IMG/VR virus record: IMGVR_UViG_3300034031_000046
Span: 1 to 64,000 of that record
DNA from: a virus
DNA length: 64,000 nucleotides
Direction: 5' to 3' (one strand)
Shown: positions 20,514 to 55,507 of the stretch, piece by piece
Layout of the letters: each line of letters begins with the position of its first letter
Position numbering within the stretch: position 1 is the first letter of the stretch
Made by a program: the position numbers and the translations under genes
Notes under the pieces: model-generated
Told to the model about the DNA's origin: nothing
What the model saw: the letters and a program-made list of their open reading frames with translations, nothing else
Database searches by the model: none

Positions 20514-22958
20514 ATGAGCGAGTCCACCTCTTCTTCGAGCACCAACGCACCAGAAACCAATGCCAACGGAATGATCACGCTGTCCGAGCGTGCGTTCGTC
20601 GAGCTCGCGGCAGGTGCCGAGCGTGCCGGCCAACCCGCGTTGATGGAAAAGTATTTCGACAAGGCGGTCGAGGCCAGTGTCAACGGCGGAACGGCTCAAC
20701 TCGAAATGCCGCGCCACATGATGATGACCAACGACCCGTCACCAACGGGCCACGCGGCAACGGGTTACCCGCAGGAAGTGCTGCCGCGCATCGATCGCGA
20801 TTCGCCCATCGTGAAAGCCATCGTTGCCAATGGCTACAGCCCGCGCCCTGTTCCGTATCGCGTCAACGATGCACTCATGACGCTCGGGCACTACAACGGC
20901 ATTCGCGACCTCAGTCAGGCCACGTCCAAGACGTTCCAGATGCTGAAAAAAGTGAGTGAGTTTCCGCTCATCGATGCCATCATCGGCTACAAGATCGCCG
21001 AAATTGACCCGTTTCTTTCTCAGCCGACCAACAAGAAAAAGTACGGCTTCGAGATTCGTCAGAAGAACCGCAAGGCCCCCGTCACCCGCCGCTCGCGCAA
21101 GCGCTGCGAAGACCTGACGCACCTGATGCTTCACGGCGGCTTCATGAATCTGCCCGACGGCACGCGTCGCTGCCATCCCCAGACCGGTGAGCCCGGCTGC
21201 TGGGATGGTCTGGGGCTGGAAAAGGCCGTACCGCTGCGCCAGTTCGGCGCGAGCTTTATTCGTGACTCGTTTTCGATGGACTGGGCGTGCGCGCGCACCG
21301 AACCGGGTGGCGACCCACGCGCCTATCCCGTGGTGTTTTTTGCTCCGGTCGCCAGCGAAATGATTCGACGCACCGTCCGTGACCGCTACCAGCCCGATAT
21401 GCTGCCCGACGGGACCTTTGTCGAATACGTGGAAATGAATCCCGGCATGGATGGGCGCGTGGTGCGCGAGTTTCCGTGGACGCACATGTTCTCGATGGTG
21501 CGTCGTCCCCGCACCGACTTTTACGGGCGTGGCTATGGCTTCTCGGAAATCGAAGTTCTGCTGCGCGAAATCGCCTCGCTCCAGTTGAATCTCCAGTTCC
21601 AGAAATCGTTCTTTGACGAGAACCATATCCCGCCCGGTTTCCTGCAAATCAACGGCATGCCTGCCGATATCGACGATCAGGCAATGGACGAAATCCGCCG
21701 CAAGTTCTCCCAGTTCGGCGGTCCCGGCGCGATGTGGAAACTGTGGCTCCTGCTCTTCCCGCCTGGCTCGGAAGGCAAGGCCGAGTTCGTCGCAATGCGT
21801 GACCAGATGGGCGCCGTCCAGACGCTGCAATACAGCCTGCAAGGATTCATTCACATTCTGAATATCGTGACCTCAGTCTTCCAGATGAACCCCGAAGCGA
21901 TTGGCTTTGAGGGGCTGAAGATTCAGGCGACGGCACTCAATGGCGAAGACCCCGCCACGGCTCTGGCGCACTCCAACGACAAGAGCCGTATGTCCACGCT
22001 GGGCAATCTCGAAACGCTGTTCACCGAACACATCATCGAACGCTACGACCCCGATTTCGAATTCGGGTTTGTCGGAGCGGAGTCCCACGATCAGAAAGCC
22101 GAGGACGATCATGTTCAGGTTCTGATGTCACGCGGCTTTCCCCAGAACAAAATCGCCGATCTCAACGATGAGGACCATCTCAAAATCGCGCTGCACCCGG
22201 ACCTGTATGATGCCGTTATCGCCGAATGCGACGAAGAAAAGTTCGACTCACCCTCGGACATGCAGCGCCATATCGAAACCGAATACACGAAGCGCTTCGA
22301 AAAGATCGTTGGCACGGTTGAAGAAGGCTTTTCACCTTGGTGCGATTCACCCAATGCACCTACGGGCAATCCCGAGTCGATGAAAATCTACACCGAAAAT
22401 CGGGGCCGCGTCCTGCAGCAGATTCAAACGAAACAGATGCAGGCCAAAATGGAAGAGTTGGGCCTGCCCAAGGGCATGGACCTCCAGTCGGCGCAACAGA
22501 TGCAGGCGATGGGCTACGAGGTTCCCGGTCTGCCCTCGATGCAGCCGCAGGAGGGCGAGGGAGGCGAGGAAGAAGACCCGAATGAATCCGCTGTCCGGTC
22601 CGCGTTTGGTGGAGCCGCACCGGGACAGGCCACAGGACAGGAACCCGGAGGGAAGCAGGGCGCGCAGGGGGGCGCTCCCTCGGGTCAGGCACAGTCGATG
22701 AAGAAACCACCGGCGCTGCCGCCAGCCCTTCAGTCGCTCACCGAACGCCCGCAAGACGAAGACGAAACCGCTGACGACGACAAGAAGGACAAAGGCGGAA
22801 TGCGCCCTCCACGCCCCAAGACTCGCCCGGCGATGACACCGGCGATGAAGCCCACAAAGCGAAGCGCCGCCGCCTCGCTGAAAAAGGCCGAAGACTTTGC
22901 TCCAAACGACTTTGCGTCGGGCGCACGCGTGATTGAAGTCGTAATTCGTCGCTCCTAA
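20514..22958 (+). CDS. portal protein (putative)
   Basis: 814 aa downstream of the TerL-like gene. Central FYGRGYGFSEIE..FDENHIPPGFLQINGM..DEIRRKF resembles portal core blocks. Gly/Gln/Pro-rich basic C-tail. Confidence 0.65.
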   Translation: MSESTSSSSTNAPETNANGMITLSERAFVELAAGAERAGQPALMEKYFDKAVEASVNGGTAQLEMPRHMMMTNDPSPTGHAATGYPQEVLPRIDRDSPIVKAIVANGYSPRPVPYRVNDALMTLGHYNGIRDLSQATSKTFQMLKKVSEFPLIDAIIGYKIAEIDPFLSQPTNKKKYGFEIRQKNRKAPVTRRSRKRCEDLTHLMLHGGFMNLPDGTRRCHPQTGEPGCWDGLGLEKAVPLRQFGASFIRDSFSMDWACARTEPGGDPRAYPVVFFAPVASEMIRRTVRDRYQPDMLPDGTFVEYVEMNPGMDGRVVREFPWTHMFSMVRRPRTDFYGRGYGFSEIEVLLREIASLQLNLQFQKSFFDENHIPPGFLQINGMPADIDDQAMDEIRRKFSQFGGPGAMWKLWLLLFPPGSEGKAEFVAMRDQMGAVQTLQYSLQGFIHILNIVTSVFQMNPEAIGFEGLKIQATALNGEDPATALAHSNDKSRMSTLGNLETLFTEHIIERYDPDFEFGFVGAESHDQKAEDDHVQVLMSRGFPQNKIADLNDEDHLKIALHPDLYDAVIAECDEEKFDSPSDMQRHIETEYTKRFEKIVGTVEEGFSPWCDSPNAPTGNPESMKIYTENRGRVLQQIQTKQMQAKMEELGLPKGMDLQSAQQMQAMGYEVPGLPSMQPQEGEGGEEEDPNESAVRSAFGGAAPGQATGQEPGGKQGAQGGAPSGQAQSMKKPPALPPALQSLTERPQDEDETADDDKKDKGGMRPPRPKTRPAMTPAMKPTKRSAAASLKKAEDFAPNDFASGARVIEVVIRRS

Positions 22959-25616: not shown

Positions 25617-26249
25617 ATGTACCTGATTGGACTCACCGGAACCGCTCGTCACGGCAAAGACACCGTTTACACCATCCTCGTGGAGATCTTCCTGCGCTAC
25701 ACACAGGCGAAAGGTTTGCCTCCCGCCGATATTCCACCTGCTACCTTTATTCGGCGCTATGCCATCGCCGACCGGCTCAAGATGGAAGTGGCCGCCGCGT
25801 GGGGCGTCACCCTCGAAGAAATCAACGCCAATAAAGATTTCTGGCGTCCCCTGCTTCAGGCGTGGGGTAACACCAAGCGTGTGACGCATGGCGAAAACTG
25901 CTGGCTGGACCAGGTCGAGCATCAAATTGAGAAGGACCGGCCCCAGATCGCCATTATCACCGACGTGAGTTACCCCAACGAATTCGCGTGGTGCCGCGTG
26001 AAGTACGCTGGCGTGGTCTGGCGCGTCTTGCGCCCCGGCGTCCCCGCGCCCAACAACCACGCCACTGAGCACGGGCGGGCCAACGAACCGGTCGAGTACA
26101 CGATTGTCAACGACGGAACCATCAACGATCTCCGCATCGCCGTGGCGGTCGCTCTGGATGAATGGACCAATCGTTATCACGACATTCCGCCTGCCAATGG
26201 TGCAAGGACTGAAGCCGCAGCCTCTTCCGCAGGCGCGCCCTCCGCATGA
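25617..26249 (+). CDS. deoxynucleoside monophosphate kinase-like P-loop protein
   Basis: MYLIGLTGTARHGKDTV P-loop at the extreme N-terminus, as in phage dNMP kinases. GAGGA RBS. Confidence 0.6.
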   Translation: MYLIGLTGTARHGKDTVYTILVEIFLRYTQAKGLPPADIPPATFIRRYAIADRLKMEVAAAWGVTLEEINANKDFWRPLLQAWGNTKRVTHGENCWLDQVEHQIEKDRPQIAIITDVSYPNEFAWCRVKYAGVVWRVLRPGVPAPNNHATEHGRANEPVEYTIVNDGTINDLRIAVAVALDEWTNRYHDIPPANGARTEAAASSAGAPSA

Positions 26250-27271
26250 ACTCTTCGAGATCGTCCGATAATTCCCTGACTGTCCGCTTCATTCCTGAAG
26301 ACGGGGCCGGTGTCGATGATCTTGTCGCCATCGTGCAGGCGGCTCTTGCCGTCCCCGAGGTCGCGCAGCACTTTTCTCTCAGCGGCTACGGGACAGTGAA
26401 CTCGCTTCTGGAAAAGGCGATTGTGATCGACGCGGAAGGAGAAGCCCGCGCACTGGAGCAAGCGACGGCGGGCATTGAAGAAATCACCGCGCGCTTGATG
26501 GAACTCAAGGACGGGTGGCAGGCGACGTGTGAACTTCACGCGGCAGCGACGCGCGCCGCCGGTCCGGCATGGGCGAACCCGCGCCTTGAGAAAGCACGGC
26601 GCGTTTTCGAACGGCAGGCGCGCAGTGTGATACGCACCTCGCTGCGCCAGATGTGGATGCGCGGGAGGGAGGCGGGAGGGGCCACGGGGCCGCTACGCCA
26701 CGATGAAGAGGTGCAGCTTCAACGCCTCTATCGCGAGGAGCAACAGTATTTTCTTAACCTCCTTGTGGATGTCGAGCAAGGCACGGGGCGCATGGACAAA
26801 GACCGCCGCGTCGCCATGTATGGCCGCGCTTCGCTCGAAGCCTACTGGGCCGGTTTTGTTCTCGCCCAACTGGCCCCCGGTCGCTACGTGCAGTGGATAA
26901 AAAACGACGTGGAATCGTGCGGCGACTGCATCCTGCTCGCGCGCGGTGGCCGCTGGGGAAACGGAATTTACACGGCGCGGGAACTGGCGCGGGCGGGGCT
27001 CTTCCCGCGTTCGGGGAAGCTGCAGTGCTGCACCAATTGCGAATGTGAACTGCGGGCCGTGCCGCGTCCAACCGGGCCACCGGTGCGCGGCCATGTGCTG
27101 CTGAGCGATCTGCCGCTGAAAGGCGTGTCCTCTTCATCCTTCACCGGTCAGGGGCGCAGCGGTCGGCAGGCGCTGGAGAAACGCGCGGCAAAGTATGGTC
27201 GATGGACCCACCAGGGCCGGACGGTGAAACGAGGCAATCCGCTCTGGCGTGCCGGGAGGAAAAAGGTATGA
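26246..27271 (+). CDS. MuF / SPP1 gp7-like head morphogenesis protein (putative)
   Basis: C-terminal WIKNDVESCGDCILLARGG..LFPRSGKLQCCTNCECEL resembles the D-x-x-x-C-x-x-C...P-x-H/x-x-C-x-C end of MuF domains. Divergent. Confidence 0.45.
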   Translation: MNSSRSSDNSLTVRFIPEDGAGVDDLVAIVQAALAVPEVAQHFSLSGYGTVNSLLEKAIVIDAEGEARALEQATAGIEEITARLMELKDGWQATCELHAAATRAAGPAWANPRLEKARRVFERQARSVIRTSLRQMWMRGREAGGATGPLRHDEEVQLQRLYREEQQYFLNLLVDVEQGTGRMDKDRRVAMYGRASLEAYWAGFVLAQLAPGRYVQWIKNDVESCGDCILLARGGRWGNGIYTARELARAGLFPRSGKLQCCTNCECELRAVPRPTGPPVRGHVLLSDLPLKGVSSSSFTGQGRSGRQALEKRAAKYGRWTHQGRTVKRGNPLWRAGRKKV

Positions 27272-27834: not shown

Positions 27835-30800
27835 ATGACCGCAACGCCATTTACCCAGACCCGGCAGAACCGTTCCCGACAGGGGCGTCCCCACCCCACT
27901 CTCCTGATTGTCAGCGCTCCCGCCGCCATTCCCGCCGTCACGGCTCCCCAGCTTGTGCACTGCGGTGCACACGAGGAAGAGTTACTCAAAGCGCATCCGG
28001 GTTCGGTCGCGGTTGTCAAGACGCGCCGCGACGGCCACCGCCAGCGCTACTGGACCAAGCCCGACGGCCATTTCTGGATTACGCCAAAAGGGGAATCCGT
28101 CCGCCTCAAGGGCACGCACGCGGGTTTCCTGTCGCGCCGTCGCGATCTGCTCAAGCGGTTCGTGCCCGAATATGATGGCGGTCAGGTCGAGGACCATCAC
28201 ATCACGAAGTTCGCGCAGCGGACGGGATGGGTGCGCGCGCGCCACTGGAATATGGCCGGCCACAACTGGCACTCCTATTCGCTTCCTAACGAGCGGCCTG
28301 ACACCTTCGAAGCCGCGCAGCGCCATCACGAGGAGCGCTACGGCAAGGACGGAGATCCGCCGCTCGTCACCGTTGAACTCGATAACGACGCCATCGACTT
28401 GCACCCCGACGCCGGTCAAAGCTGGCATCGTTCCTATCGCCAGATGAAGCGGCTTCACGGCATGGGCATGGAATGGGGACAGCCGCTCTTTAAAGCGACG
28501 GCGTTGCATCCCAAAAGCGATTACGTGCCCGGAGAGGATTGTCCGCACTGCGGCGCTTCGATGGAACAGGGCGGACAGGCCGATTACGATAAAACACAGA
28601 TGCCGTTGTGTAACTCCTGCGGCAAGGAGTGGCCGGACCCGACATGGTCATCCCCGAGTCTGTCGGGGGATGGTGGTCAGGGATGGCACTGCCCATGGTG
28701 CTCGGAGGTCAACTGCTCCGAAACACCGGAGACGAACCGCTCCTGCTACAAGTGCAAGAAAACCGTCGATGTCATTGACGAGGGCGACAGCCCCTCCGGA
28801 AAGGAGATCTGGCATGTTCATCCGGCACGCCAGCACGCGGGGAAAGACGGCGAAGATATCGCTAAGGCGTTCGCCTCGGGTTATCCGCTTCAGGGGCGGC
28901 GCATGTTTCGTGGGCTACATGTCTCCATTGAGAACCGCAAGGGCCGCTATCGCGTGGACAAGCAGCACGACCCACCGCAGTGGAAAAGCCTGATGTATTG
29001 TGATTACGGATACGTGCGCGGCTCCGAAGGTGTCGATGGCGACCACATCGACGTGTTTGTCGGTCCCAACGAAAACGCGCCGGACGTTTACATCGTGCGC
29101 CAGGTCAACCCGTCAACGGGAAAATTCGATGAGCAAAAGTGCATGCTCGGTTTCGACTCGGCGGAGCAGGCGAAGGCGATGTATCTCAAGCATTACGACA
29201 CGCCGAAATTCTTCGGCGGCATCACCGCGATGCCGTTTGACGAGTTCAAAGCCAAATCGCTCGCCAGTCTGCACGGCGAGAAGTTGCTCAAGGCCGTCGC
29301 GCTACGCGCCCTCTCCCCTGCTCCGTCCACCGCGACAAAGAAGAAAAACAAGGCTGCTGCGCCGGGGGCGAAGCCTACCGCTCCCCGCCAGATCGCCGTC
29401 GTGATTCCGTCGGTGAAACCGGCTGCCGCCAAAGGTGCGACCAAAGGTGCCCTCACCGGCGCCCGCCGCGTCGGTGGCGTTGGGCCATCGCACAAGGGCA
29501 GCAAGTGGATTACCGTGCACGATGCCGTTGAAGTCCATGTACCGCGCAAGGGCCGTCAATCTGGGGCCGTTGTTTCAGCCACTAAAAATCACGTCTGGGT
29601 TTTCACACGTCACGGCACGTTCGAAGCGCCGCGCGCCGAAGTCACGCCACTCAAGCGCAAAGTCACCTTTGACTGGCGCAAGGCATCGCAGGTGATACCG
29701 CACCCCGGAAGTGTCGTCACCGTCCGTCCCCTGCCCGAGTCGCTGCCCGCAGGAATGAAACAGGCGCAAAGCGTGAAGCGCGTTCTGGCCGAACCCATCA
29801 AAAACAAGGGCGCCAACGCGAGCGTGAAAGTGCTCGAAGTTCGTCCCGGTCGCAACGACATGAAAACGCACACGGTGAAGCGGTCGCAAATCGCGGGACC
29901 GTACTTGCCGGACAAGTTCATCGACCCGGTCGAGAAGACGCGCACACGTCGCCGCCCCGACGCCGTCAAGACGAAGTCACAGTTGAAGTCCGAAGCGTCG
30001 AACCTCACCTACGTGAAATATCTCGATGCGCGCGGCCAGAAGAACCTGAGCGAGCGGGAAAACAAATGGTTCGCCAAGCACGAACAGCGCATCGAGGGCG
30101 TAGCACGCGGCATCGCGGCGCGCATGATGATCACCGGAGAAAACGTGCAAGACCTGATTTCCCACGCCAACGTCGGTGCGCTCTACGCCTACCGTCAGTG
30201 GGACCGGGACCGCGCGGCGCAACGGGGCATGAAGCTCTCCAACATGGCCCGCCACGCCGCGATTGAGGCCGGTCTGGATCTCGATTCCGAGGAAGGCAAG
30301 GCGTTCGTCAAAGTCGAAGCCCATCGCCTGTCGAAAACGATGTCGGCGACCGCTCTCCGCGACAAACACATCTTCGCGGGTGCATGGATGGAAACGATGC
30401 GGCGCGCGGACGAGGTCATGGATATCACCGGTCTTTCCGGTATCAACCGCAGCGATATCGGGCGCGTGGTGCGCGCGGAACGCGACCTGTCCGCAGAACT
30501 GGGACGCCGTCCCCTGCCCCGCGATATCGCGAACCGTCTGGGTTGGACGAGTGCAGGCGGTGAAGAAAAGGTACGCCTCTGCCTCGCCAAGAAAATCGCG
30601 CGCGCTGCGTCGCGGATGTCGGAACTGGAACGTGAAACCGAAGGCGGCACCGTATCACCGCAGGACACACTCGCAGCGAAACCCGAGGTCGATGCAGCAT
30701 CCAGCGAACGCGCGGAACAAACGCGCGCAGCGGTGATGCAATTGGGCCGTCTCGCCGGACTCGACGAACGCCAGACGCTGATTTTGCGCGAGGGCCTGAG

Positions 30801-31002
30801 CCGCGATATCGCCAACCGTCCCAAAGCCAGCGGTGCCGCGCTTGCGATCGCGCAGCAACTGCGCAAGGAATTCGGCGGTAAGGATTCCGAAGGCTCAGTG
30901 ATTCAGGAGTGGACCGCGATTCAGCAGCACCTTTCCTCCTACGTGCAGGGCAACCGCTTTACGGCGGAAAAGGTCTTGGGCCAGAAGCTCGTCGGCACCT
31001 GA
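27835..31002 (+). CDS. giant multidomain protein: zinc ribbons + inorganic-pyrophosphatase-like domain + C-terminal sigma-70-like domain
   Basis: CPHC..CNSC and WHCPWC..CYKC ribbons. YCDYGYVRGSEGVDGDHIDVFVG resembles PPase YPxNYGFIP..DGDPxDVLV. VQDLISHANVGALYAYRQWD (sigma region 2-like), LSAELGRRPLPRDIANRLGW (region 3-like) and LDERQTLILREGLS (region 4-like). Confidence 0.6.
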   Translation: MTATPFTQTRQNRSRQGRPHPTLLIVSAPAAIPAVTAPQLVHCGAHEEELLKAHPGSVAVVKTRRDGHRQRYWTKPDGHFWITPKGESVRLKGTHAGFLSRRRDLLKRFVPEYDGGQVEDHHITKFAQRTGWVRARHWNMAGHNWHSYSLPNERPDTFEAAQRHHEERYGKDGDPPLVTVELDNDAIDLHPDAGQSWHRSYRQMKRLHGMGMEWGQPLFKATALHPKSDYVPGEDCPHCGASMEQGGQADYDKTQMPLCNSCGKEWPDPTWSSPSLSGDGGQGWHCPWCSEVNCSETPETNRSCYKCKKTVDVIDEGDSPSGKEIWHVHPARQHAGKDGEDIAKAFASGYPLQGRRMFRGLHVSIENRKGRYRVDKQHDPPQWKSLMYCDYGYVRGSEGVDGDHIDVFVGPNENAPDVYIVRQVNPSTGKFDEQKCMLGFDSAEQAKAMYLKHYDTPKFFGGITAMPFDEFKAKSLASLHGEKLLKAVALRALSPAPSTATKKKNKAAAPGAKPTAPRQIAVVIPSVKPAAAKGATKGALTGARRVGGVGPSHKGSKWITVHDAVEVHVPRKGRQSGAVVSATKNHVWVFTRHGTFEAPRAEVTPLKRKVTFDWRKASQVIPHPGSVVTVRPLPESLPAGMKQAQSVKRVLAEPIKNKGANASVKVLEVRPGRNDMKTHTVKRSQIAGPYLPDKFIDPVEKTRTRRRPDAVKTKSQLKSEASNLTYVKYLDARGQKNLSERENKWFAKHEQRIEGVARGIAARMMITGENVQDLISHANVGALYAYRQWDRDRAAQRGMKLSNMARHAAIEAGLDLDSEEGKAFVKVEAHRLSKTMSATALRDKHIFAGAWMETMRRADEVMDITGLSGINRSDIGRVVRAERDLSAELGRRPLPRDIANRLGWTSAGGEEKVRLCLAKKIARAASRMSELERETEGGTVSPQDTLAAKPEVDAASSERAEQTRAAVMQLGRLAGLDERQTLILREGLSRDIANRPKASGAALAIAQQLRKEFGGKDSEGSVIQEWTAIQQHLSSYVQGNRFTAEKVLGQKLVGT
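27955..27970. promoter_or_regulatory. GTGCACTGCGGTGCAC 16-mer
   Basis: Exact copy, 120 nt inside the 1055-aa ORF. Confidence 0.7.
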
Positions 31003-31061: not shown

Positions 31062-34000
31062 GTGGCACATAAAAACAATCGCACCCGCTCTGCTTCGGCC
31101 CCTTCGTCGCCTGCGACTTCTTCGTCAGACCCTTCGCCGAAACGCTACACCGCACAGGTCGGCGATGCCCGCGTCCCCGTTGCGGTCTGTCATAAAACGG
31201 GAGCCGTGCACCGGCTCGTACCGCGCTCGTGCGACTGCGGGCGGGTGCATCTTCTCAAGGGCAGCATTCACAGCCAGCGCGGCCCCGTCGTGGACGGCGA
31301 GCGCGACTTCTCGATCTGTGATGAATGCGGAAAAATCCACCCACACGGCAACGACGAAGTCACCCTGCAAAAGTCGTTCGACTGGCTGCAGCAGGCGTAT
31401 TTCGCAGGCGATGCGCGGCGCGATGCGCAGGAGTCTCCGGCACAGAAAACCGTGCTCTTGGTCAAGGCGTCGCCGCATGTGATTCCGACTCCCAAGAACT
31501 CGGAGGGTCGTGTTGATTTCGGCGCTGTGGCAACGGGCAAAACGATCTGGATTACCATCACCAAGGAAGGCCCGCTGCGGGGCCGTCGCGTGATGATCAC
31601 CAAGCGCCCTGATGGATTGTTTGCCATCACCGGCGGCGCCAAGGCAGCGCGCGATCGCGGTTATTTTCACGCCGCTCTGGAATTCGGGAAGCAACGCGAA
31701 CTCACCGACGAAGAAAAAGCGTCGCGCGAAAAGTTCCGCGTCAAGGAAGAGGAGAAAAAGCAGCAGCGCCAGGCGTTCTTCAAGGAACACGGCGGAGATC
31801 TCAACAAGCTCAAAACTGCGCAGAAAGATGTGCGCGCCAAAATCTGGCAGTCGATGGGAATCGACTCCGATGAGGAAGCCAGCGAAAAGCTGCGGTCATA
31901 CCGCGCCAAGGCGCGCGACCTGTTGGTTAAGGCCGGATACGAAAAAGACGACGCGGCCAAGATTTCCGATGAGATGGCGAACTCGGAAAAGGCGCGTCTC
32001 AAGTTCGTGCGCGAGCGGGCGCTGAAAGAAGCGATGAAACGCGCCTATGAAGCCGAACGCTCGAAGGCCGCCCAACTGGCGAATCAGCCCGCAGCAGAGC
32101 CACCCAAAGCCAAGGAAGACAAGGGCAGCGCCGAAGACGACGCCCCAGCGGGTGATACTGCCAGGGAGAATGCTGGTGATGCGGCACAAACCGAGGAAAC
32201 GCCAGCAGTTGAAGAAACCCCGCTTCTCTCCGAAGAGCAACGGCAGGAACTGCATGGTCTGGACGCGGACACGCTCACACCCGAAGACATTCCGGCCCCT
32301 GACGCGGGTAAGACCCTGACCGATGAGCAGCGTCAGAAAATCTCCGAGGGAATCAAAGCCCGCCATGAGGAAAAGCGCCGTCTTGCCGCCGAGGAAGCCG
32401 CCGCCGAAGCGCAACGCGCACGCGAAGCCGAGGACCAGAAACGCATGGCCGGGAGCGACTCCAAGGACATGCTCCGCTGGATTGGTGAGCACCGCCATTT
32501 GCAGGAAACCGAGCGCAAGCTGCGCGCGAAACAGGAAAAGGCCATCGGTCCCGAATTCTCGGGCACCATCGCTGCGCTCAATTTCCGCCAGACGGGCACC
32601 GATATCATCGGCGAAGACGAGGCAGTGCAGAAGGCGATGAGCACCATCGAGGACCAGATCGAGGAGGAAAAACGCGGCGACTTTTACGCGCGCCTCGCCG
32701 AAATGGCCCGCAATCCCGAGACGGGTGACCACGACCCGCACAACCCGTTCGGCCATCTGGCCGCGCACTATGAAGCGGGCGGTATCAAAACCCTCAATCG
32801 TATTGCCACCGAGTTCTTGGGCGCGGACATTTTGCGCGGCGAGCTCGTCAAGGGACTGGGATTGCAGGCAGCGACCGAAGTCGTCGTCGAACGCCTCAAG
32901 CGTGAGGGTGCTGACCTTGAGCACGTTCGCGAGTGGGTGCGCCAGCAGGAAGGCCGCGAGATGGACACGCTGGAGCGGGCACTCGAACGCGACGAAACGT
33001 TGCAAACGGAACACACCGAACTGCAGAAGCAGGCGGGCGAAGAGTACGGTAAGGGCACGCGTCTCCACGACGCGGTCAAAGCGCTGTATGAGGCTGATAA
33101 CCTTGCACGCCAGCATGAAAACATGGGAGAGGCTCTGGGAGGACTGGAAGCCATCGGTTCGTTTGCTCTCGCTCTCGATTCGAAACCGGGCGGCGTGATC
33201 GAACTCAGCGTGGGCGAAGACCTTTCCGGCTTCCGCCAGCGCGTGTCCCGGACCGTGAGTGCCGGTGTCGCCAAGCGTATCGTCGGCAAAACCAAGCGTG
33301 ATGGGACGCGTGTCGCCCAGGTGCGCATTGCCGATCTGCGCAACTTCGTTGACCGGATGGGAGCCGTCAACACGACTCAGGTAGCGCTCGCGAAAATCGC
33401 TTCTGGCAAAGAAAATACGGCGGACTTTGTGGTCCCCGGCATCAAGATCGGAGAGGGCCATGACTTCGGCACTTTTCGTCCCGGTCAGCAATCCGACGTG
33501 CGTCATGTGATGAAGCAGTTGGAGGTTCTTGAAAAAGAAAAGAATCTTTCCAACGCCGAGAAATCGCTGCGCACGGCGGGGCTTTTCATCAACCGCGAAG
33601 TCGGCGGTGGCAAGTCACTCATCTCCCTCGCGGTCGCGCAGCAGATGCTCAATCAGAACAAGGACAACAACCGTCCGGTGATTTTCACCTGTCCCGAGAA
33701 ACTTCTCGCCAACTGGCACGGACAGGTGAAACAGTGGTGCGAGGACCCGTCGGCGATGGTTTTCGGCCAGCATCCGGGTGGAAAGCTCTCTGCCGATGAT
33801 GCAGGCGAAGACGGCCAGGCTGCACAATACCTTCAAAACAAGGATGGCCTGCAAAAAATGGTCAACCAGATTCTCTCCGGCAAAGCGCCGCGCCGTCTGG
33901 TAATCGGGCAGAAAGCACTCAACGCCAAGGTCCGCGTCAAGATGCCGGGAATGACCAAGTCTGAAGAAATGACCGTCGCACAGGCGCTCAATTACACCAA

Positions 34001-35204
34001 TCCCCTGCTCGTCGCGCACGATGAACCGCAGACGATGACGACGGCCAAGAAAGGCGTGCTGGGCGAAGCGGGCAAAGCCGCGACGCGAATGGGCGTTGGC
34101 CTCAAGGATGAGAACGATAGTCCCCTGCACTGCGCTCGCCTTGCTCTCACCGCTACACCGGCGCGTCACAACGTCGGCCAATTGTATGATATGGCACGAT
34201 GGGTAACGGGCGGCACCATCGGTACCCGCAAATCCTTCGAAAGCAAAAACGGCACGCTGGGCAAGGGCACGAACGTTTTCGAAGAATCGCAGGGCGATGC
34301 CGTTCTCAACAAGCTGCGCACGCAGATGGTGTCCGAGCGCGGCCAGAAGCAGCACACGCCTTACGTTGGAAAGCGTCTGTCGAACATGGACGAGTGGCAG
34401 AAAACGGCACAGGCCACGACCTCCTCGGAGTACGGTCCCCACATTGAGGCGCTCACCGCCGCGCTGGAGAAACCGCAGTTCCGCGCGGGCAACTTTCAGG
34501 TGAAGATGTCCACCGGCTGGAAGGAAAAGGAGATCACCAACCGGCGTGATGCCGAGGCGTGGCGCGACCGTTTGCTCGAAAAGCACGACGCCGACCAGTA
34601 CGCGCACCTCTACGGCGTTCCTGCTGGCGGCAACTGGAAAGACAATCCCGCGCTGGTCGAGGCGTCGAAGGCATTGCGCGAGCGGGACAAAGCCAATCCC
34701 GGCGAGCAGTCGATTCTATGGGCGCCGCACGAAGACACGCTGCGTGGCCTCAAGCAGATGCTGCGTGAGGAGTACCCGGACGAATCGTTCACGACGATGT
34801 GGAAGGAATCGGAAATGCCCGGCAACTCGGAGGAGTTCAAGTCCGGCAAACACCGTTTTGTAGTCGCATCGCACAAGGCGAACTCCGGTTACAACTTGCA
34901 GAATGCGGGAAGCGCTCTCTTTGTAGGCTTGCCCAAGGAAGCGGTGGAAAACATTCAGGCACGAGGGCGTATCGAGCGAGATCCACGAGCGGGTGACCCG
35001 GTCACCTATCACATCGATTACGAGGATGCGCCCACGGTCCATCGCCAGAATCATATCCGTGCGAACGAACAGCGTCTCATCGAAGCGACCAACCTCGCCG
35101 TACGCGGCAAGAACGATTTGCCGATTCCGGCGGAAACCACCGGCGTGCTCGCGCGCGCCGATGCCTACACCGGCGAATACAGCGAACAGCGTAAAGCGGC
35201 CTAA
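31062..35204 (+). CDS. giant coiled-coil protein with C-terminal SF2 (SNF2-like) helicase
   Basis: GTG start 6 nt after GAGGT; the first start in the ORF track (30909) overlaps the upstream gene. REVGGGKSL (Walker A), LVAHDEPQ (DExQ), LTATPARHNVGQLYDMARWV (motif III) and NIQARGRIER (motif VI). Confidence 0.7.
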   Translation: MAHKNNRTRSASAPSSPATSSSDPSPKRYTAQVGDARVPVAVCHKTGAVHRLVPRSCDCGRVHLLKGSIHSQRGPVVDGERDFSICDECGKIHPHGNDEVTLQKSFDWLQQAYFAGDARRDAQESPAQKTVLLVKASPHVIPTPKNSEGRVDFGAVATGKTIWITITKEGPLRGRRVMITKRPDGLFAITGGAKAARDRGYFHAALEFGKQRELTDEEKASREKFRVKEEEKKQQRQAFFKEHGGDLNKLKTAQKDVRAKIWQSMGIDSDEEASEKLRSYRAKARDLLVKAGYEKDDAAKISDEMANSEKARLKFVRERALKEAMKRAYEAERSKAAQLANQPAAEPPKAKEDKGSAEDDAPAGDTARENAGDAAQTEETPAVEETPLLSEEQRQELHGLDADTLTPEDIPAPDAGKTLTDEQRQKISEGIKARHEEKRRLAAEEAAAEAQRAREAEDQKRMAGSDSKDMLRWIGEHRHLQETERKLRAKQEKAIGPEFSGTIAALNFRQTGTDIIGEDEAVQKAMSTIEDQIEEEKRGDFYARLAEMARNPETGDHDPHNPFGHLAAHYEAGGIKTLNRIATEFLGADILRGELVKGLGLQAATEVVVERLKREGADLEHVREWVRQQEGREMDTLERALERDETLQTEHTELQKQAGEEYGKGTRLHDAVKALYEADNLARQHENMGEALGGLEAIGSFALALDSKPGGVIELSVGEDLSGFRQRVSRTVSAGVAKRIVGKTKRDGTRVAQVRIADLRNFVDRMGAVNTTQVALAKIASGKENTADFVVPGIKIGEGHDFGTFRPGQQSDVRHVMKQLEVLEKEKNLSNAEKSLRTAGLFINREVGGGKSLISLAVAQQMLNQNKDNNRPVIFTCPEKLLANWHGQVKQWCEDPSAMVFGQHPGGKLSADDAGEDGQAAQYLQNKDGLQKMVNQILSGKAPRRLVIGQKALNAKVRVKMPGMTKSEEMTVAQALNYTNPLLVAHDEPQTMTTAKKGVLGEAGKAATRMGVGLKDENDSPLHCARLALTATPARHNVGQLYDMARWVTGGTIGTRKSFESKNGTLGKGTNVFEESQGDAVLNKLRTQMVSERGQKQHTPYVGKRLSNMDEWQKTAQATTSSEYGPHIEALTAALEKPQFRAGNFQVKMSTGWKEKEITNRRDAEAWRDRLLEKHDADQYAHLYGVPAGGNWKDNPALVEASKALRERDKANPGEQSILWAPHEDTLRGLKQMLREEYPDESFTTMWKESEMPGNSEEFKSGKHRFVVASHKANSGYNLQNAGSALFVGLPKEAVENIQARGRIERDPRAGDPVTYHIDYEDAPTVHRQNHIRANEQRLIEATNLAVRGKNDLPIPAETTGVLARADAYTGEYSEQRKAA

Positions 35205-36798: not shown

Positions 36799-37275
36799 AT
36801 GAAACTTTATATCTCGCCTCTGCAGCGGCAAATTGCGAATTTGAGCAAAGGAGTGAGTCTCGATGCGCCAACCGCGCAGAAAAAGGGTGGCGTCTCCAAG
36901 GACGCTGCCCCGAAAGACGCCCCCGTAAAAGGCGCCGCCCCTGAAAACACGGCCCATAAGAAGCGTCTCGGTTCGGCGCGAAAGCGCGCCGTCGAGATCG
37001 CGGCGCGCAAGTCGGCTTCGGCGCAAAAAATCCAGCGCGGCATCGCCCAGTGCGATGCTGACATCACCCGGCTCGAAGCGCGAGAAGCCGAGTACCGGTC
37101 GAATCTCGAACGGAAGATGGAATCCGACCGTACTCCCGATGCCGCATTCAAGACGATTCGCGCTGCGCTTGCCAAGGTCCTCCAACAGAAAACCGAAGCT
37201 GCGGAAGCCCGGCGCGTGTATGTTCTCGCGCACGCCAAGCTGATGCAGCCGTTCCGTCAAACCGTGGATGCCTAA
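36799..37275 (+). CDS. hypothetical basic coiled-coil protein
   Basis: GGGAGGA RBS. Lys/Ala/Arg-rich helical sequence. Confidence 0.55.
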   Translation: MKLYISPLQRQIANLSKGVSLDAPTAQKKGGVSKDAAPKDAPVKGAAPENTAHKKRLGSARKRAVEIAARKSASAQKIQRGIAQCDADITRLEAREAEYRSNLERKMESDRTPDAAFKTIRAALAKVLQQKTEAAEARRVYVLAHAKLMQPFRQTVDA

Positions 37276-38659
37276 AGGTGGACGCCTGACTCGCCCGAAC
37301 TTTCCTATGGACCCCTTTTCCTCTCTTCAACTCGCGTTCCAAAAATCGCTGCAGAACCAGTTTCTCGCGAGCGGTCTGATGTTGATGCTGGGCGGTAGCC
37401 TGCTGGCGTTATGCCGCACGGTGCCCGCCCACATTTTTCGCTGGCTCAAGAGCCAGTTCATCGTTTCGGTTGATGTGCTCAGCCCCGACCCTGTTTATGA
37501 CTGGTTGTCGATCTGGCTTGATCAGCACCCGTACAGCAACCGGGCACGTGCCCTCACGGCGACAGCGCGGCGCCATTACCGCCCGATTTCGCAGACGCCG
37601 GACAATTGTGCTGAGCCTTCGCTGCCAGAGATCCTCTTCACTCCCGCTCCCGGTAATCATTTCTTCGTGTATCACGGGCATCTGGCGTGGCTGAGCCGGG
37701 AACGCAAAGAGCCGACCGCCGACAACCCGCTGGTGATGATGCCGCGCGAAACATTCATGATTCGCATCGTGGGACGCCGCCAGTCGCTCGTGCGTGATTT
37801 GTTAGAGGACGTGCGCCTCTGCGCTCATTCGGCGATGAAGGAGCATCGCAACGTCTTTGTGACCGGAGACGGCTACTGGCGTTCTACCGGCATACGCCTT
37901 CAGCGGTCGCTGGACTCGGTGATTCTTCCCGAAGGCGTCGCGGAGGATGCTCTGGCCTCGGTGCGCGAGTTTCTGCAAAGCGCGCCCTGGTATCAGAAAG
38001 TCGGTGTCCCATGGCGCTGCGGCTGGCTTCTCGAAGGGCTTCCCGGCTCGGGTAAAACCAGTCTTATTGGTGCCATCGCCAGTGAACTGAATCTCGATCT
38101 CTATTGCCTTAGTCTCGTTTCGTCTGGCATGAACGACAGTCGTCTGGCCGATATGATTGCGAACATGAATCCCGGCAGCATCCTGCTGATGGAGGATATC
38201 GATGCGGCGACACAAGGCCGCACGATGACCCTCGTCGAGGAAGAGGGGCAGGCAGTGTCGGGCGTCACGTTCTCGGGCCTGCTCAATGCCATTGATGGCA
38301 TCGCCGCGAAGGAAGGCACGCTGCTCTTCATGACGACCAACCATGCGGAACGGCTCGACCCCGCACTGATTCGTCCGGGCCGTATTGACCATCGCATTCA
38401 CTTCTCTCACGCCACGCCGGAACAGGTGGGCCGTATGCTCTGCCGCTTTTATCCCGATTCCGATACGACCTACCGCTTGCGGTTCATGGCCGCTCTCGAA
38501 GCCACTCAGTCCAGTGCAGAGCCATTGTGGCCCCTTAGTACTGCGACTCTCCAGCAACACCTGCTGCGCTTCAAGACGGACCCGGAAGGCGCATTACTCA
38601 ATCTCGAAAGCCGGTTGCAGCGCGGCCCACGCAGAGCACTTCACGCTGTTTTCGGATAG
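37268..38659 (+). CDS. BCS1-like AAA+ ATPase with N-terminal TM helix
   Basis: N-terminal FLASGLMLMLGGSLLAL. WLLEGLPGSGKTS (Walker A), ILLMEDIDAA (Walker B), FSGLLNAIDG and LFMTTNHAERLDPALIRPGRID (SRH/Arg finger). Alternative start at 37306. Confidence 0.85.
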   Translation: MPKGGRLTRPNFPMDPFSSLQLAFQKSLQNQFLASGLMLMLGGSLLALCRTVPAHIFRWLKSQFIVSVDVLSPDPVYDWLSIWLDQHPYSNRARALTATARRHYRPISQTPDNCAEPSLPEILFTPAPGNHFFVYHGHLAWLSRERKEPTADNPLVMMPRETFMIRIVGRRQSLVRDLLEDVRLCAHSAMKEHRNVFVTGDGYWRSTGIRLQRSLDSVILPEGVAEDALASVREFLQSAPWYQKVGVPWRCGWLLEGLPGSGKTSLIGAIASELNLDLYCLSLVSSGMNDSRLADMIANMNPGSILLMEDIDAATQGRTMTLVEEEGQAVSGVTFSGLLNAIDGIAAKEGTLLFMTTNHAERLDPALIRPGRIDHRIHFSHATPEQVGRMLCRFYPDSDTTYRLRFMAALEATQSSAEPLWPLSTATLQQHLLRFKTDPEGALLNLESRLQRGPRRALHAVFG

Positions 38660-44922: not shown

Positions 44923-45729
44923 TCAATTCACTGAGGCTGCCGATTCCAAAACGCTCTTCCACGTATGGCGACGCCCCAGCCCCTTGGTCGAGCGTTTTGG
45001 ATGGCGCCCTTCAAGGAAGTTTTCTTCGATTCTCAATGAGCGCTGGAGCAGTTCGGGATGCGCCTGATTGAGCCACACAATTTCACTCTTATGGGACGCC
45101 GGGCAAAAGAAACATGCCGATTTAACAGGGACGGGAAGACCGGCTGCTTTGATGATGTCAATGCACATGTCGCGATCGTACTGCCATTCAATCAGCGGAT
45201 ACCAATACTCGTATTTCTTGCAGGGGTTGGAACGACAGCAGATGCACTTCCCTTTCCCCGTCCCGTCTTGGCCGAATGTTCCGCGACACGAATCGCGCGG
45301 CGAAGCATCGTAGCCAATGACCTTCTTCACCTTAACGCCTGCGGCCCATGCCTCCCGTGCGGGTGCCCAGTTGTTACAGAATTTGTTCTGCGGCCCGACC
45401 TTCCACTTCAAAGAACAGGACTTCATGCCAAACGCCAGTGACGGCAGTGTCTCATTCGTCAGACACTCCGCCTCCAGACTTTCATGCTTGCTGGTCCGTG
45501 TAACCGTGACCACCTGAATCGGCGGCTGTGCGTGCGCTGCAAGATATTCCTGAATGATCGGAAGATAGGCATACGTCTCCGGCTTTTCTCCTTTCGTATC
45601 TGCAAACAAAATAAGGTCTGGGACGATTCCCCGCTTTACAAACTCAACGAGAATGGCGGTGCTGTCCACCCCCATGCCATAGGCCATCGTGAGAGGCGGG
45701 CGAATATCGATTAGCTGTAACTGGCTCAT
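44923..45729 (-). CDS. PAPS-reductase-family (PP-loop-like) protein
   Basis: MAYGMGVDSTAIL..LILFADTKGEKPETY (variant PP-loop and DTG-x-E-x-PET). Cys-rich C-terminus ..SACFFCP. Confidence 0.7.
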   Translation of the reverse strand: MSQLQLIDIRPPLTMAYGMGVDSTAILVEFVKRGIVPDLILFADTKGEKPETYAYLPIIQEYLAAHAQPPIQVVTVTRTSKHESLEAECLTNETLPSLAFGMKSCSLKWKVGPQNKFCNNWAPAREAWAAGVKVKKVIGYDASPRDSCRGTFGQDGTGKGKCICCRSNPCKKYEYWYPLIEWQYDRDMCIDIIKAAGLPVPVKSACFFCPASHKSEIVWLNQAHPELLQRSLRIEENFLEGRHPKRSTKGLGRRHTWKSVLESAASVN

Positions 45730-46877
45730 GACAATTGTTCTCCTTGGGTGTGCTCGATAAACCCGTCGATGAATTCGTTCGTCAGAATCTGAAAGTCCGA
45801 TTCGAGCAGGTTCACGCCATTGCCCTCTTTCAGGGACTCGGCAACGAGCTCGTCCAGATGCTGCCGAATCAAGGCCGCCAGTTTTGGACTGGGAGTGCGG
45901 TCCTTACCGATGGCATAAATTTCGGGTGATGCCTGCATCTTCTGATAAAGTGCCACCTTTTTTCGATAAATGCTTTCGGTCGTTTCCGCCCAGAGGCAGA
46001 ACTGTCCGATGTAATAATTGGCGTAGCCCAGAAACGGCTCGGTCCGCCGTTCGTGCTCCTCCTTTTCGCTGATTTTTTCGAGATAGATCATCACGGTAGC
46101 GATGCCCGTTCCGCTTTCCTTGAACGCGCCGGCTTCGATTTCTGAATACTCCCCAAACGTGAGCACGAACTTGAGGAAGTCTTTTTCGCGTTGGCCCGTG
46201 TTGCGAAGAAATCCGGGAGGTGCAATGGCGACCATGACACCGTGTGGACGAAGCAACTCATAGGCGCGCTCGATGTGCGTGATGTATGCAAGACGGTCAC
46301 CCTGCACCGAAAAAGGCGGGTTAATCAAAATCCGGTCGTAGGTATTGGGTGGCCCATCAAAGCTCAGAAAGTCGTCACCTGCGAGCGCGTAGCCTTTGCG
46401 CTCCAGCACCATGCGATTCAGTTCATCGATCTCGCAGATGTCGATTTGCTCCGGGCGAATTCCGGCTTCCACAAGGGCATCGACAATCGCTCCCTGACCG
46501 GCGGAGAATTCACCGAATCGTGCATCTTCGGGAACATAGTTCATAAATGCCAGTTCGACCATGCGGTCCACAACAGGGCGCTGCGTCGGAAAATAGGCCA
46601 GTGGATTCTTGGGAGGCATCTTGCCCGTTTCCTGCACAGCAGCCAGAAGCGGACGGGGGTCGAATGAAAAGAGATGCGCCTTTTTGCTGCCCTTCCATTT
46701 GCCGCCGATGCGCTCCAAGACCGCGTTCACCGCTTCATATTCTTTCCGGTCAAGTTCACCGCACAGCAGCTTCACCGAGTCCGGCGTGCATTCCACCTGA
46801 TGCCGCAGAATCTCCAGCACCGTGGGTAATACGGGTTCGCTCGCCATCGCAACATCGAATCGATTTACAGTTTTCAT
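45726..46877 (-). CDS. DNA methyltransferase (N6A/N4C class, NPPF motif)
   Basis: FGEFSAGQGAIVD (motif I) and ILINPPFS (motif IV). AGGAGA RBS. Confidence 0.75.
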   Translation of the reverse strand: MKTVNRFDVAMASEPVLPTVLEILRHQVECTPDSVKLLCGELDRKEYEAVNAVLERIGGKWKGSKKAHLFSFDPRPLLAAVQETGKMPPKNPLAYFPTQRPVVDRMVELAFMNYVPEDARFGEFSAGQGAIVDALVEAGIRPEQIDICEIDELNRMVLERKGYALAGDDFLSFDGPPNTYDRILINPPFSVQGDRLAYITHIERAYELLRPHGVMVAIAPPGFLRNTGQREKDFLKFVLTFGEYSEIEAGAFKESGTGIATVMIYLEKISEKEEHERRTEPFLGYANYYIGQFCLWAETTESIYRKKVALYQKMQASPEIYAIGKDRTPSPKLAALIRQHLDELVAESLKEGNGVNLLESDFQILTNEFIDGFIEHTQGEQLS

Positions 46878-46943
46878 AAGTGTCTCCTAGGTAGAGGGTT
46901 GGGCGGGACGCAATAGCCAGGGCTACTCCCCCGCTTCATCAGA

Positions 46944-46967
46944 ACGTAGGTAAAAGGGCATTTTGAC
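46944..46967 (-). promoter_or_regulatory. leftward promoter-like element A (GTCAAAATGCCC-N6-CTACGT on minus strand)
   Basis: Upstream of the methyltransferase operon (ATG 46877). The most divergent copy. Confidence 0.5.
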
Positions 46968-46984
46968 GGTGAGCGTTGCGGTTC

Positions 46985-47512: not shown

Positions 47513-48082
47513 TTATTGGTTCATCAGACTTTTCATCGACGGTCCCATTCGCTTCGCCATCTCGGCACGGCCACGGCACAAACGGGACTTGACGGTGCCG
47601 ACGGGATAGCCGACACGGACGGAGATTTCTTTCACGTCCATACCCTGCACATGGTGCATCACGATGACTTCACGCTGCCAGTCGGGCAGACATTTGAGAG
47701 CATCATGGACGAGGAGGCGCAGACACTGGTGGTACTCATCGTTCTCCAGATCGTGGTGCACAGGCGGCGCGCTGTCTTCGACTTCGAGCACGGTCCCGTC
47801 GATGTCGGAACTATCGAGAGACAGCAGAATAATCGGTGCCGCTGGGTTACGTCCCCGCGTCTTGCGCAGGTAATCAATGACGATGTTGGATGCTGTCGTA
47901 TAAAGGTAGGACGCGACCGCGCGGTCACTCAGACTTTCCATCTCGTCTATCTTCTGCGAAAAGCGGATGAACGTTTCCTGCGTCACGTCTTCGGCATGGT
48001 CGGAATTACAGCCCATCTTTGTGACGTGAGTCAGGATGCGGCCATAAAATCGCTGGTGAATATCGGGGAATAGGGGGGACAT
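47513..48082 (-). CDS. ECF-type sigma-70 family RNA polymerase sigma factor
   Basis: Region 2 (AEDVTQETFIRF..YLYTTASNIVIDYLRK) and region 4 (LPDWQREVIVMHHVQGMDVKEISVRVGYPVGTVKSRLCRGR). AAGGATTATTT-ATG start. Confidence 0.85.
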   Translation of the reverse strand: MSPLFPDIHQRFYGRILTHVTKMGCNSDHAEDVTQETFIRFSQKIDEMESLSDRAVASYLYTTASNIVIDYLRKTRGRNPAAPIILLSLDSSDIDGTVLEVEDSAPPVHHDLENDEYHQCLRLLVHDALKCLPDWQREVIVMHHVQGMDVKEISVRVGYPVGTVKSRLCRGRAEMAKRMGPSMKSLMNQ

Positions 48083-48111
48083 AAATAATCCTTGGGCCTG
48101 AGCCGGTTTTT

Positions 48112-48127
48112 GTGCACTGCGGTGCAC
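48112..48127. promoter_or_regulatory. GTGCACTGCGGTGCAC 16-mer
   Basis: Exact copy between the minus-strand terminator at 48137-48162 and the sigma-factor start at 48082. Confidence 0.75.
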
Positions 48128-50141: not shown

Positions 50142-50172
50142 GTCGGGCTCCTTTCAAATTGGTTTCTTCACC

Positions 50173-50201
50173 GGTACGTAGATCGATGGGCATTTTGACA
50201 A
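50173..50201 (-). promoter_or_regulatory. leftward promoter-like element B (TTGTCAAAATGCCC-N6-CTACGTACC)
   Basis: 31 nt upstream of the ParB-like gene start. Confidence 0.6.
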
Positions 50202-50223
50202 GCGCGACACAGGTGAACGAAAA

Positions 50224-51685: not shown

Positions 51686-51733
51686 AAGCAACCTCGGGTT
51701 GATTCCCACAGTTTTGAGTACGATCAATGGATT

Positions 51734-54550: not shown

Positions 54551-54571
54551 GATTCCCCCTGTAAATTCATC

Positions 54572-54600
54572 GGTACGTAGATCGGCGGGCATTTTGACAA
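54572..54600 (-). promoter_or_regulatory. leftward promoter-like element C
   Basis: 21 nt upstream of the ATG at 54550. Near-identical to B and D, including the flanking CGATGAA. Confidence 0.6.
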
Positions 54601-54612
54601 CGGGCGGTATTG

Positions 54613-55434: not shown

Positions 55435-55462
55435 TGAAATTGTCTCCTTGGTTTTCTTCATC

Positions 55463-55491
55463 GGTACGTAGGAAGGCGGGCATTTTGACAA
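55463..55491 (-). promoter_or_regulatory. leftward promoter-like element D
   Basis: 28 nt upstream of the ATG at 55434. Divergent from the rightward consensus promoter at 55508. Confidence 0.6.
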
Positions 55492-55507
55492 AGCGCGAAA
55501 AAATTGC

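Follow-up and report, generated by a model that had tools for sequence, protein, structure and literature searches.

The 64,000-nucleotide (nt) window analyzed here, positions 1 to 64,000 of the IMG/VR virus record IMGVR_UViG_3300034031_000046, is tailed-phage DNA, as the presence of terminase, portal and major head protein genes indicates. On its plus strand, at 27835..31002, lies an open reading frame (ORF) of 3,168 nt, stop included, that encodes a multidomain, polyvalent-type phage protein of 1055 amino acids (aa). The C-terminal ~300 residues of this protein resemble sigma-70 factors beyond chance, and they share one polypeptide with two zinc-ribbon motifs and a type I inorganic pyrophosphatase-like (InPase) domain. 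We think it likely that the sigma-like module is homologous to the sigma-70 family. In our preferred reading, to which we assign a probability of roughly one half, the 1055-aa protein is a polyvalent-type InPase protein whose sigma-derived C-terminal module docks on the host RNA polymerase core for early capture of the polymerase.

When the C-terminal 342 aa were compared with Pfam, Sigma70_r3 matched with E=1.8e-5 (25.2 bits, 0.1 bit short of the gathering score of 25.3) and Sigma70_r2 with E=9e-4 (19.4 bits against a gathering score of 24). With the whole protein as query the same two models were found in the correct order (Sigma70_r3, E=1.9e-4; Sigma70_r2, E=4e-3, 17.3 bits). Apart from these two, the C-terminal 342 aa matched no helix-turn-helix (HTH) or DNA-binding family in Pfam at E≤10. 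All 10 NCBIfam models matched by the C-terminal 342 aa at E≤10 are sigma models, including SigB/F/G, the RpoD C-terminus and SigK. The best of them are FliA_WhiG and SigBFG, scoring 22 bits against family cut-offs of 190-234; the FliA/WhiG match (E=7.6e-5) begins ~25 residues ahead of the region 3-like block and ends in early region 4 (profile position 184 of 224). The sigma matches are repeated in a relative that is 46% identical (P0002), and across the seven-member family Sigma70_r3 is matched by two proteins and Sigma70_r2 by three. The best PDB sequence matches are SigA/RpoD chains, weak in both cases (E=0.048 for the single protein, E=0.0039 for a profile of the query and P0002).

The blocks are also collinear with those of sigma factors. 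An hhalign comparison of the query plus P0002 with an alignment of four E. coli sigma factors taken as translations of NC_000913 (FliA, RpoS, RpoH and the C-terminal part of RpoD) gave for the whole module a probability of 96% and P=4.6e-9; the match is a single collinear stretch, 171-189 columns long, from region 1.2/2.1 to region 4.1. Taken segment by segment, sigma3 gave P=7e-7 (92%), sigma2 P=0.006 and sigma4 P=0.004, and the score rose from 42 for sigma3 alone to 66 with all blocks. Reversed-sequence controls gave P values from 0.016 to 0.33, with P=0.065 for the whole-module comparison. A phmmer alignment to RpoD agrees with the same order, that is, region 2, region 3, 3.2 linker and region 4. 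We also ran a hidden Markov model (HMM) of the four E. coli sigma factors against all 594 stop-to-stop ORF segments of the window. The 1055-aa ORF ranked first (E=2e-8), P0002 second (E=1e-3) and a separate canonical extracytoplasmic function (ECF) sigma factor third (E=0.046), with everything else at E>1. This ECF sigma factor, encoded at 47513..48127 on the minus strand, had been recognized in the original prediction made from the sequence of the window, and TIGR02937 bears it out (81.6 bits against a cut-off of 42.9).

The same prediction had placed sigma regions 2, 3 and 4 at the C-terminus of the 1055-aa protein, and the peptides it quoted are all present in the ORF, displaced by a few bases at most. 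Its regions 2.1-2.4 have to be divided. The region 2.1-2.2-like block (residues 753-794; 30091..30216, plus strand, as are all features of this protein given below) contains IEGVARGIAARMM (residues 753-765; 30091-30129) and VQDLISHANVGALYAYRQWD (residues 771-790) and is upheld by the Sigma70_r2 match and the collinear hhalign alignment, whereas KLSNMARHAAIE (residues 800-811), which had been read as regions 2.3-2.4, has no profile support. It is in the 2.1-2.2-like block that the family as a whole is most conserved (xANxGALxxxRxW), and the A-x-x-G-A-L-x-x-x-R that is invariant across the seven members aligns with sigma region 2.2 (E-G-N-I-G-L-M-K-A-V). Region 2.2 of sigma factors is the main determinant for binding of the β′ clamp helices. 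Three helices (30217..30456), seen in the predicted model and in the alignments, lead from this block to the region 3.0-3.1-like three-helix unit (residues 875-926; 30457..30612), which includes VVRAERDLSAELGRRPLPRDIANRLGW (residues 878-904; 30466-30546) and to which the Sigma70_r3 match and the strongest of the segment alignments belong. An acidic disordered linker follows at 30613..30699, with a predicted local distance difference test (pLDDT) score below 50 at model residues 214-242, and by the collinear alignment it takes the place of the sigma region 3.2 linker. The sigma4-like C-terminal helices (30700..30999), predicted by AlphaFold2 (AF2), include the region 4.1-like block LGRLAGLDERQTLILREGL (30742-30798; 23 hhalign columns, weak), and the spacing from region 3.0 to region 4.1 is ~100 residues, against ~90 in group 3 sigma factors. 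The proposed region 4-like part, LGRLAGLDERQTLILREGLS (residues 970-989) followed by ALAIAQQL (residues 1002-1009), thus survives weakly for region 4.1 and fails for region 4.2, since ALAIAQQL, at the position of region 4.2, has no profile support and a 4.2 HTH was not detected.

The AF2 model of the C-terminal 342 aa (mean pLDDT 77.5) is all-helical, with a disordered acidic stretch where the sigma 3.2 linker would fall. A Foldseek search of the PDB with the whole module returned sigma factors at all of the top 50 positions (SigD, SigA, sigma-S, SigB and FliA), over 270-370 aligned columns; FliA (1rp3) has the highest probability (0.99) and the highest template modelling (TM) score and is ninth by E-value. 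These whole-module matches may partly re-use amino-acid signal that had already been found by sequence. In a viral structure library the top Foldseek matches are phage sigma factors, none of them significant. The sigma2-like segment was also modelled alone by AF2, with a pLDDT of 95.3 and a predicted TM-score of 0.84.

Several results weigh against a sigma-derived module. The profile check suggested by the original prediction succeeded for the pyrophosphatase family, which scores above its cut-off, and fell short for the sigma families: not a single Pfam sigma model reaches its gathering score, and Sigma70_r4/r4_2 has no match even at E≤10, with either the whole protein or the C-terminal 342 aa. 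By themselves the sigma2 and sigma4.1 alignments are weak (P~0.005). The region 3 unit is present in the query and P0002 only and is absent from P0003-P0007; because two of seven members have it, the region 3 columns drop from the seven-member profile, in which a sigma signal is found only in regions 2.1-2.2 (P=0.002) and which retrieves no sigma factor from the PDB (top match phi29 p6, E=0.78). The distance from the 2.2-like block to the 3.0-like helix is ~90 residues as compared with ~45 in RpoD, that is, ~45 extra residues. The aromatic residues of regions 2.3/2.4 are not recognizable; the positions of sigma-70 Y430/W433/W434 are occupied by M/H/A in the KLSNMARHAAIE stretch of a pairwise RpoD alignment that is unreliable there, and they differ again among the relatives. 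In the structural comparison, the whole-module E-values are 0.01-0.25 and the TM-scores do not exceed 0.37. The likeness to sigma structures that the whole module displays is not reproduced by the isolated sigma2-like model, which retrieved from the PDB by Foldseek generic helical bundles only, all at E>1, and zero sigma factors; we count this against a canonical sigma2 fold.

The identity of the InPase domain (polyvalent-protein clade; residues 353-473; 28891..29253) is established by PF18823, with E=2.3e-40 and 138 bits against a cut-off of 26.8 over 122 of 135 profile positions. This fully confirms the pyrophosphatase-like domain that had been proposed from the active-site-like stretch YCDYGYVRGSEGVDGDHIDVFVG (residues 388-410; 28996-29064). 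The acidic motifs DGDHID (residues 402-407) and FDEQK (residues 431-435) are the same in P0002. PHROG matches of this part are to minor head proteins, virion structural proteins and DarB-like proteins, and by tblastn the domain occurs in 474 phage records, most of them labelled "minor head protein", from Pseudomonas PB1-like and other myoviruses. The InPase family was defined for phage polyvalent proteins, is found in phages only and is without the β-hairpin of cellular type I pyrophosphatases; its members were proposed to be packaged and to degrade a nucleotide signal or to clear pyrophosphate (PPi), which would favour early transcription or replication (PMC5512222). The two zinc ribbons that had been noted ahead of the pyrophosphatase part are also present, as CxxC...CxxC motifs at residues 236-262 and 286-307 (28540..28755), with sub-threshold Pfam zinc-ribbon matches only. 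The N-terminal 352 aa and residues 560-712 gave no family or PDB match.

Behind the InPase domain, a low-complexity linker rich in Ala, Pro and Lys (residues 480-541; 29272..29457) leads to a conserved boundary motif, GARRVGGVGPSHKGSKW (29458..29508), that heads the ~140-aa region and the sigma-like module. The family pattern of this motif is G-x-[RQ]-R-x-GG-x-G-x-SH-x-x-S-x-W, and it recurs at residue 282 of P0002, residues 33 and 508 of P0004 and residue 44 of P0005. P0004 has two copies, each ahead of a module, and the short relatives carry the motif near the protein N-terminus; it may serve in processing or in targeting to the capsid. The ~140-aa conserved region (29512..29934) belongs to no known family, is kept in P0002-P0006, always N-terminal of the sigma-like module, and reads as β-rich from its sequence. 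With zinc ribbons, InPase, this region and the sigma-like module in one long phage polypeptide, the 1055-aa protein has the at least two unrelated effector-type domains by which polyvalent proteins are recognized.

The family is rare. An HMMER search with residues 560-1055, exhaustive over 1.84 billion cluster representatives, found six relatives, and with cluster members the family amounts to nine sequences in ~15 billion, all metagenomic. One member (P0008) was binned in an Abditibacteriaceae metagenome-assembled genome, a possible clue to the host. A word-indexed homologue search with the C-terminal 365 aa gave zero relatives and, with the seven-sequence profile, P0005 only; a scan of IMG/VR and JGI metagenome contigs with the query plus P0002 profile also gave zero. 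Common to all relatives is the boundary motif, followed by the ~140-aa region and then the sigma-like helices, and the upstream InPase domain is found only in the query and P0002.

The gene order around the sigma-like gene is conserved. In the four lineages with flanking sequence it lies downstream of a portal gene and of a gene for a Cys-rich protein of 341-379 aa. In the window these are the portal protein gene at 20514..22958 (plus strand; PHROG portal families) and, between it and the 1055-aa gene, the gene for a 341-aa protein of no known family at 26246..27271 (plus strand). The 341-aa protein is 50% identical (E=2e-64) to its 376-aa counterpart in locus L008 (8000-9130), and the neighbour proteins of L010 (8865-10004, 379 aa) and L012 (8842-9912, 356 aa) were assigned by size and position only. 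The Cys-rich C-terminus of this neighbour reads CGDC...CCTNCEC; the idea taken from it, that the 341-aa protein is a MuF-type minor head protein, was dropped as it has no Pfam or PHROG support. In the window and in L001, L010 and L012 the sigma-like gene is followed by that of a giant helicase, and the L008 contig ends just past the sigma-like gene. In the relatives these helicases are of 2178 aa with an intein (L010, 12214-18750), 1890 aa (L012, 16802 to the locus end) and 1847 aa with LPD1 and SNF2 (L001, 8750 to the locus end). The portal linkage is kept across lineages of only 20-25% identity. Conservation of this order speaks for a functional unit connected with the assembly of the head and is compatible with packaging, and by analogy with other InPase proteins the 1055-aa protein is probably head-associated.

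The alternative that fares best shares the sigma-derived, polymerase-binding module and differs in delivery: the 1055-aa protein would be an ordinary intracellular product of the early or middle phase that does not travel in the virion. We take this seriously, at somewhat less than even odds. The interval from 20 to 58 kilobases (kb) between the portal and major head protein genes holds, besides the gene in question, an exonuclease, a nucleotidase, a deoxynucleoside monophosphate (dNMP) kinase, helicases, an AAA ATPase, a methyltransferase and a ParB-like protein, so that non-structural genes also occur there and proximity to head genes speaks less clearly for packaging. Neither MuF nor peptidase domains were matched in the 1055-aa protein or its 341-aa neighbour in Pfam and PHROGs, and known capsid-targeting domains were not detected in either, which deprives packaging of its hallmark domains. 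On the other hand, InPase domains of the same clade sit in minor head, portal-fused and polyvalent proteins (PMC5512222 and phage record annotations), and the portal linkage has outlasted extensive divergence between the lineages.

A second alternative takes packaging and injection for granted and goes further, making the C-terminal module a fully functional alternative sigma factor for phage-specific promoters from the first moment of infection. It would explain why the whole collinear layout is kept, including the sigma3 unit and the 3.2-like linker, which a mere docking peptide would not need; it is also in keeping with the InPase domain, a virion-protein domain, and with the conserved portal-proximal position, and the non-canonical motifs over-represented near gene starts in the window are possible phage regulatory sites. 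The residues that such a factor would use are, however, those that are not recognizable, namely the 4.2 HTH for -35 recognition and the 2.3/2.4 residues for -10 recognition and melting. Moreover, the sigma2-like segment fails to retrieve the sigma2 fold, region 3.0 is preceded by an insertion of ~45 residues, the phage has a canonical ECF sigma factor of its own already, and no motif of the window is linked to the 1055-aa protein. We consider this alternative unlikely. Equally doubtful to us is the most far-reaching scenario, in which a sigma-family subunit fused to a pyrophosphatase is packaged in the capsid and delivered with the genome, so that the host core polymerase would be reprogrammed and PPi cleared before phage gene expression.

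That the C-terminus is a helical or HTH-like module unrelated to RNA polymerase, used for DNA binding or as a structural or scaffolding part of the head and sigma-like by distant HTH ancestry or chance, is likewise improbable: the individually significant part is only the ~45-residue region 3-like unit, missing in most family members, and both the isolated sigma2-like model and the family profile lead away from sigma factors, but three blocks (2.1-2.2, 3.0-3.1 and 4.1) stand in the correct order at near-canonical spacing and raise the hhalign score together, the HTH or DNA-binding matches in Pfam and all matches in NCBIfam are to sigma families, the top 50 structural matches are without exception sigma factors, and on the sigma HMM the ORF beats every other ORF of the window, the real ECF sigma factor included.

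In the preferred reading, that of a polyvalent-type InPase protein with a polymerase-docking C-terminus, the sigma-derived module probably docks on RNA polymerase. The 2.2-like helix would touch the β′ clamp helices, and the part that resembles sigma3, the acidic linker and sigma4.1 would track the path of sigma on the core polymerase; in this way the phage would gain hold of the polymerase as its genome enters the cell or soon afterwards. There the module would act either as a very diverged alternative sigma factor or as a sigma competitor or tether at the sigma site. Because the sigma3 unit and the 3.2-like linker are retained, a promoter-specific true sigma factor is favoured on that side; because regions 2.3/2.4 and 4.2 are not recognizable, mere occupation of the sigma site is favoured on the other. 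Docking would also set the pyrophosphatase beside the transcribing enzyme, where removal of PPi would be possible. The domain identities, the collinearity, the rarity of the family and the synteny are observed; polymerase binding, any promoter specificity, packaging or injection, and cooperation between the pyrophosphatase and the sigma-like part are what we infer in this picture.

The far-reaching scenario of a packaged sigma-family subunit, if it is true, would give phages a third way to bootstrap early transcription, next to packaged polymerases (N4, phiKZ and crAss-like phages) and packaged polymerase-modifying enzymes (T4 Alt). A sigma-derived module would bring direct capture of the host RNA polymerase core into the polyvalent or virion-delivered repertoire of defence-attacking and host-modifying enzymes, and it would be the first physical link for the proposal of 2017 that polyvalent-protein pyrophosphatases help early transcription (PMC5512222). 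The generality of such a strategy is limited by the rarity of the family.

Among known systems, the InPase polyvalent proteins described by Iyer, Burroughs, Anand, de Souza and Aravind in 2017 (J Bacteriol; PMC5512222) are alike in being long and multidomain, with InPase and flexible linkers. The 1055-aa gene also resembles theirs in its head-gene neighbourhood beside giant SNF2 helicases, and the downstream protein of L001 combines LPD1 with SNF2. The 1055-aa protein differs from them in having no MuF, peptidase, ADP-ribosyltransferase or methylase domain and in having a sigma-70-like module as its C-terminal partner. The word "sigma" occurs 0 times in that survey (PMC5512222), and our literature search found neither a packaged, injected or polyvalent sigma factor nor an InPase-sigma fusion; a sigma-like partner domain in a polyvalent protein is new.

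Group 3 sigma factors (FliA/sigma-28, SigB/F/G), which have the three domains sigma2, sigma3 and sigma4, share the collinear 2.1-2.2 and 3.0-3.1 blocks, the acidic linker and 4.1. They are, however, free factors of 25-30 kDa, whereas the module described here ends a 1055-aa, enzyme-bearing protein, has ~45 extra residues between 2.2 and 3.0, and has no recognizable 2.3/2.4 or 4.2 HTH. The sigma-derived T4 gp55/gp33, the minimal sigma factors of group 2 jumbo phages and gp68 of the phiKZ non-virion RNA polymerase have diverged to the point of nearly escaping standard models, and a jumbo-phage survey by the Iyer/Aravind group lists phage sigma factors only as stand-alone proteins (PMC7824862). 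In contrast to these small, stand-alone, intracellular proteins, the three-part layout reported here is fused to a pyrophosphatase and other domains. Virion-delivered takeover of transcription is known from the T4 Alt ADP-ribosyltransferase and the virion RNA polymerases of N4 and phiKZ (PMC5512222, PMC7318152). If the 1055-aa protein is packaged, it would be like them a capsid-borne protein that redirects transcription to phage DNA before phage gene expression; unlike it, they are a modifying enzyme or complete polymerases, none of them a sigma-like specificity or docking subunit for the host core.

The start of the 1055-aa ORF is uncertain by ~40 codons. An alternative in-frame GTG at 27955 would give 1015 aa, and the first ~40 codons are doubtful because they are of low complexity, because the coding-type G+C pattern by codon position appears only past ~27925, and because a copy of a palindrome found repeatedly in the window, GTGCACTGCGGTGCAC (27955..27970, no strand assigned), falls within codons 41-46 and contains the alternative GTG. 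The gene call for the 1055-aa protein is identical in a public 139-kb metagenome contig that contains the window sequence (ENA ERZ27253121, k141_478499). The domains discussed above are unaffected by this doubt. As for the upstream sequence, AAGTACGGTCGAAC...CGTC was considered as an ECF-type promoter of the 1055-aa gene and dropped, its spacing being far too short.

The large terminase gene lies at ~18.3 kb in the window and the major head protein gene at 58.2 kb, and the portal-to-head interval holds a long insertion of accessory genes. Besides the 1055-aa protein, this insertion encodes the exonuclease, an NT5C nucleotidase and the dNMP kinase, together with a BCS1-type AAA ATPase and two giant SNF2 helicases. 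The first of the helicases, of SNF2 type and 1380 aa as called in the public contig, is encoded directly downstream of the 1055-aa gene (31062..35204, plus strand). The AAA ATPase encoded between the two helicases, at 37268-38659, combines a BCS1 lid domain with a BCS1 N-terminal domain (PF08740, E=1e-29), a mitochondrial-type architecture that struck us as unusual in a phage. A reverse-oriented block of the same interval carries genes for a methyltransferase, two 3′-phosphoadenosine-5′-phosphosulfate (PAPS)-reductase-like proteins, a ParB-like protein and the ECF sigma factor. The PAPS-reductase-like genes (44923-45729 and 50558-51727, both on the minus strand) and the DNA methyltransferase-like gene (45726-46877, minus strand), which share this block with the ECF sigma and ParB-like genes, may form a DNA-modification cassette. 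A 67-nt direct repeat with 81% identity (56650-56716 and 58376-58442) is shared between the major head protein gene, in its 5′ part, and an ORF ~1.7 kb upstream, which suggests a duplicated N-terminal segment. Neither megablast nor tblastn, run with the 1055-aa gene or with the sigma-like part of it, gave a match among 50,697 phage records, and the major head protein is also without a match in this collection; the phage therefore has no sequenced relative in it.

Three repeated elements were observed in the window. The 16-nt palindrome GTGCACYGCRGTGCAC occurs in nine copies, against 0 expected by shuffling, which start at 3550, 14893, 18294, 27955, 36317, 44886, 48112, 52996 and 55708. The copies at 18294, 44886 and 48112 stand 10-30 nt upstream of a clear ribosome-binding site (RBS) and ATG, those of the terminase, a minus-strand gene and the ECF sigma factor, respectively. 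Owing to the GTG that the palindrome itself contains, the long ORFs of the terminase (18294) and of the ECF sigma factor (48127) are given spurious starts, and the true start of the latter is probably the ATG at 48082, downstream of the palindrome copy. The palindrome might function as an operator or a promoter element, or as a hairpin in the 5′ RNA.

The 12-mer AAGTACGGTCGA has 12 copies on both strands, against 0.23 expected, and is mostly intergenic (positions 14, 4047, 4434, 8393/8407, 10206, 24935, 27191, 27731, 44909, 50223 and 51734). One copy begins at the stop codon of the ORF that precedes the 1055-aa gene, inverted pairs that form a hairpin are found at 8393/8407 and at 14, the latter with gccgaccgtact following it, and the copy at 44909 is 7 nt from a palindrome copy and ahead of an RBS. 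A 41-nt repeat (reverse complement TTGTCAAAATGCCCGCCGATCTACGTACCGATGAA, ATG included) is present in four copies, at 46935-46975, 50167-50207, 54566-54606 and 55457-55497, all in or at the edge of minus-strand inter-ORF gaps in the block from 43 to 56 kb. The copy at 55457 overlaps the start of the ORF at 54613-55491, and that at 50167 heads a run of genes that includes the ECF sigma factor; the repeat may be a phage promoter or a 5′ leader.

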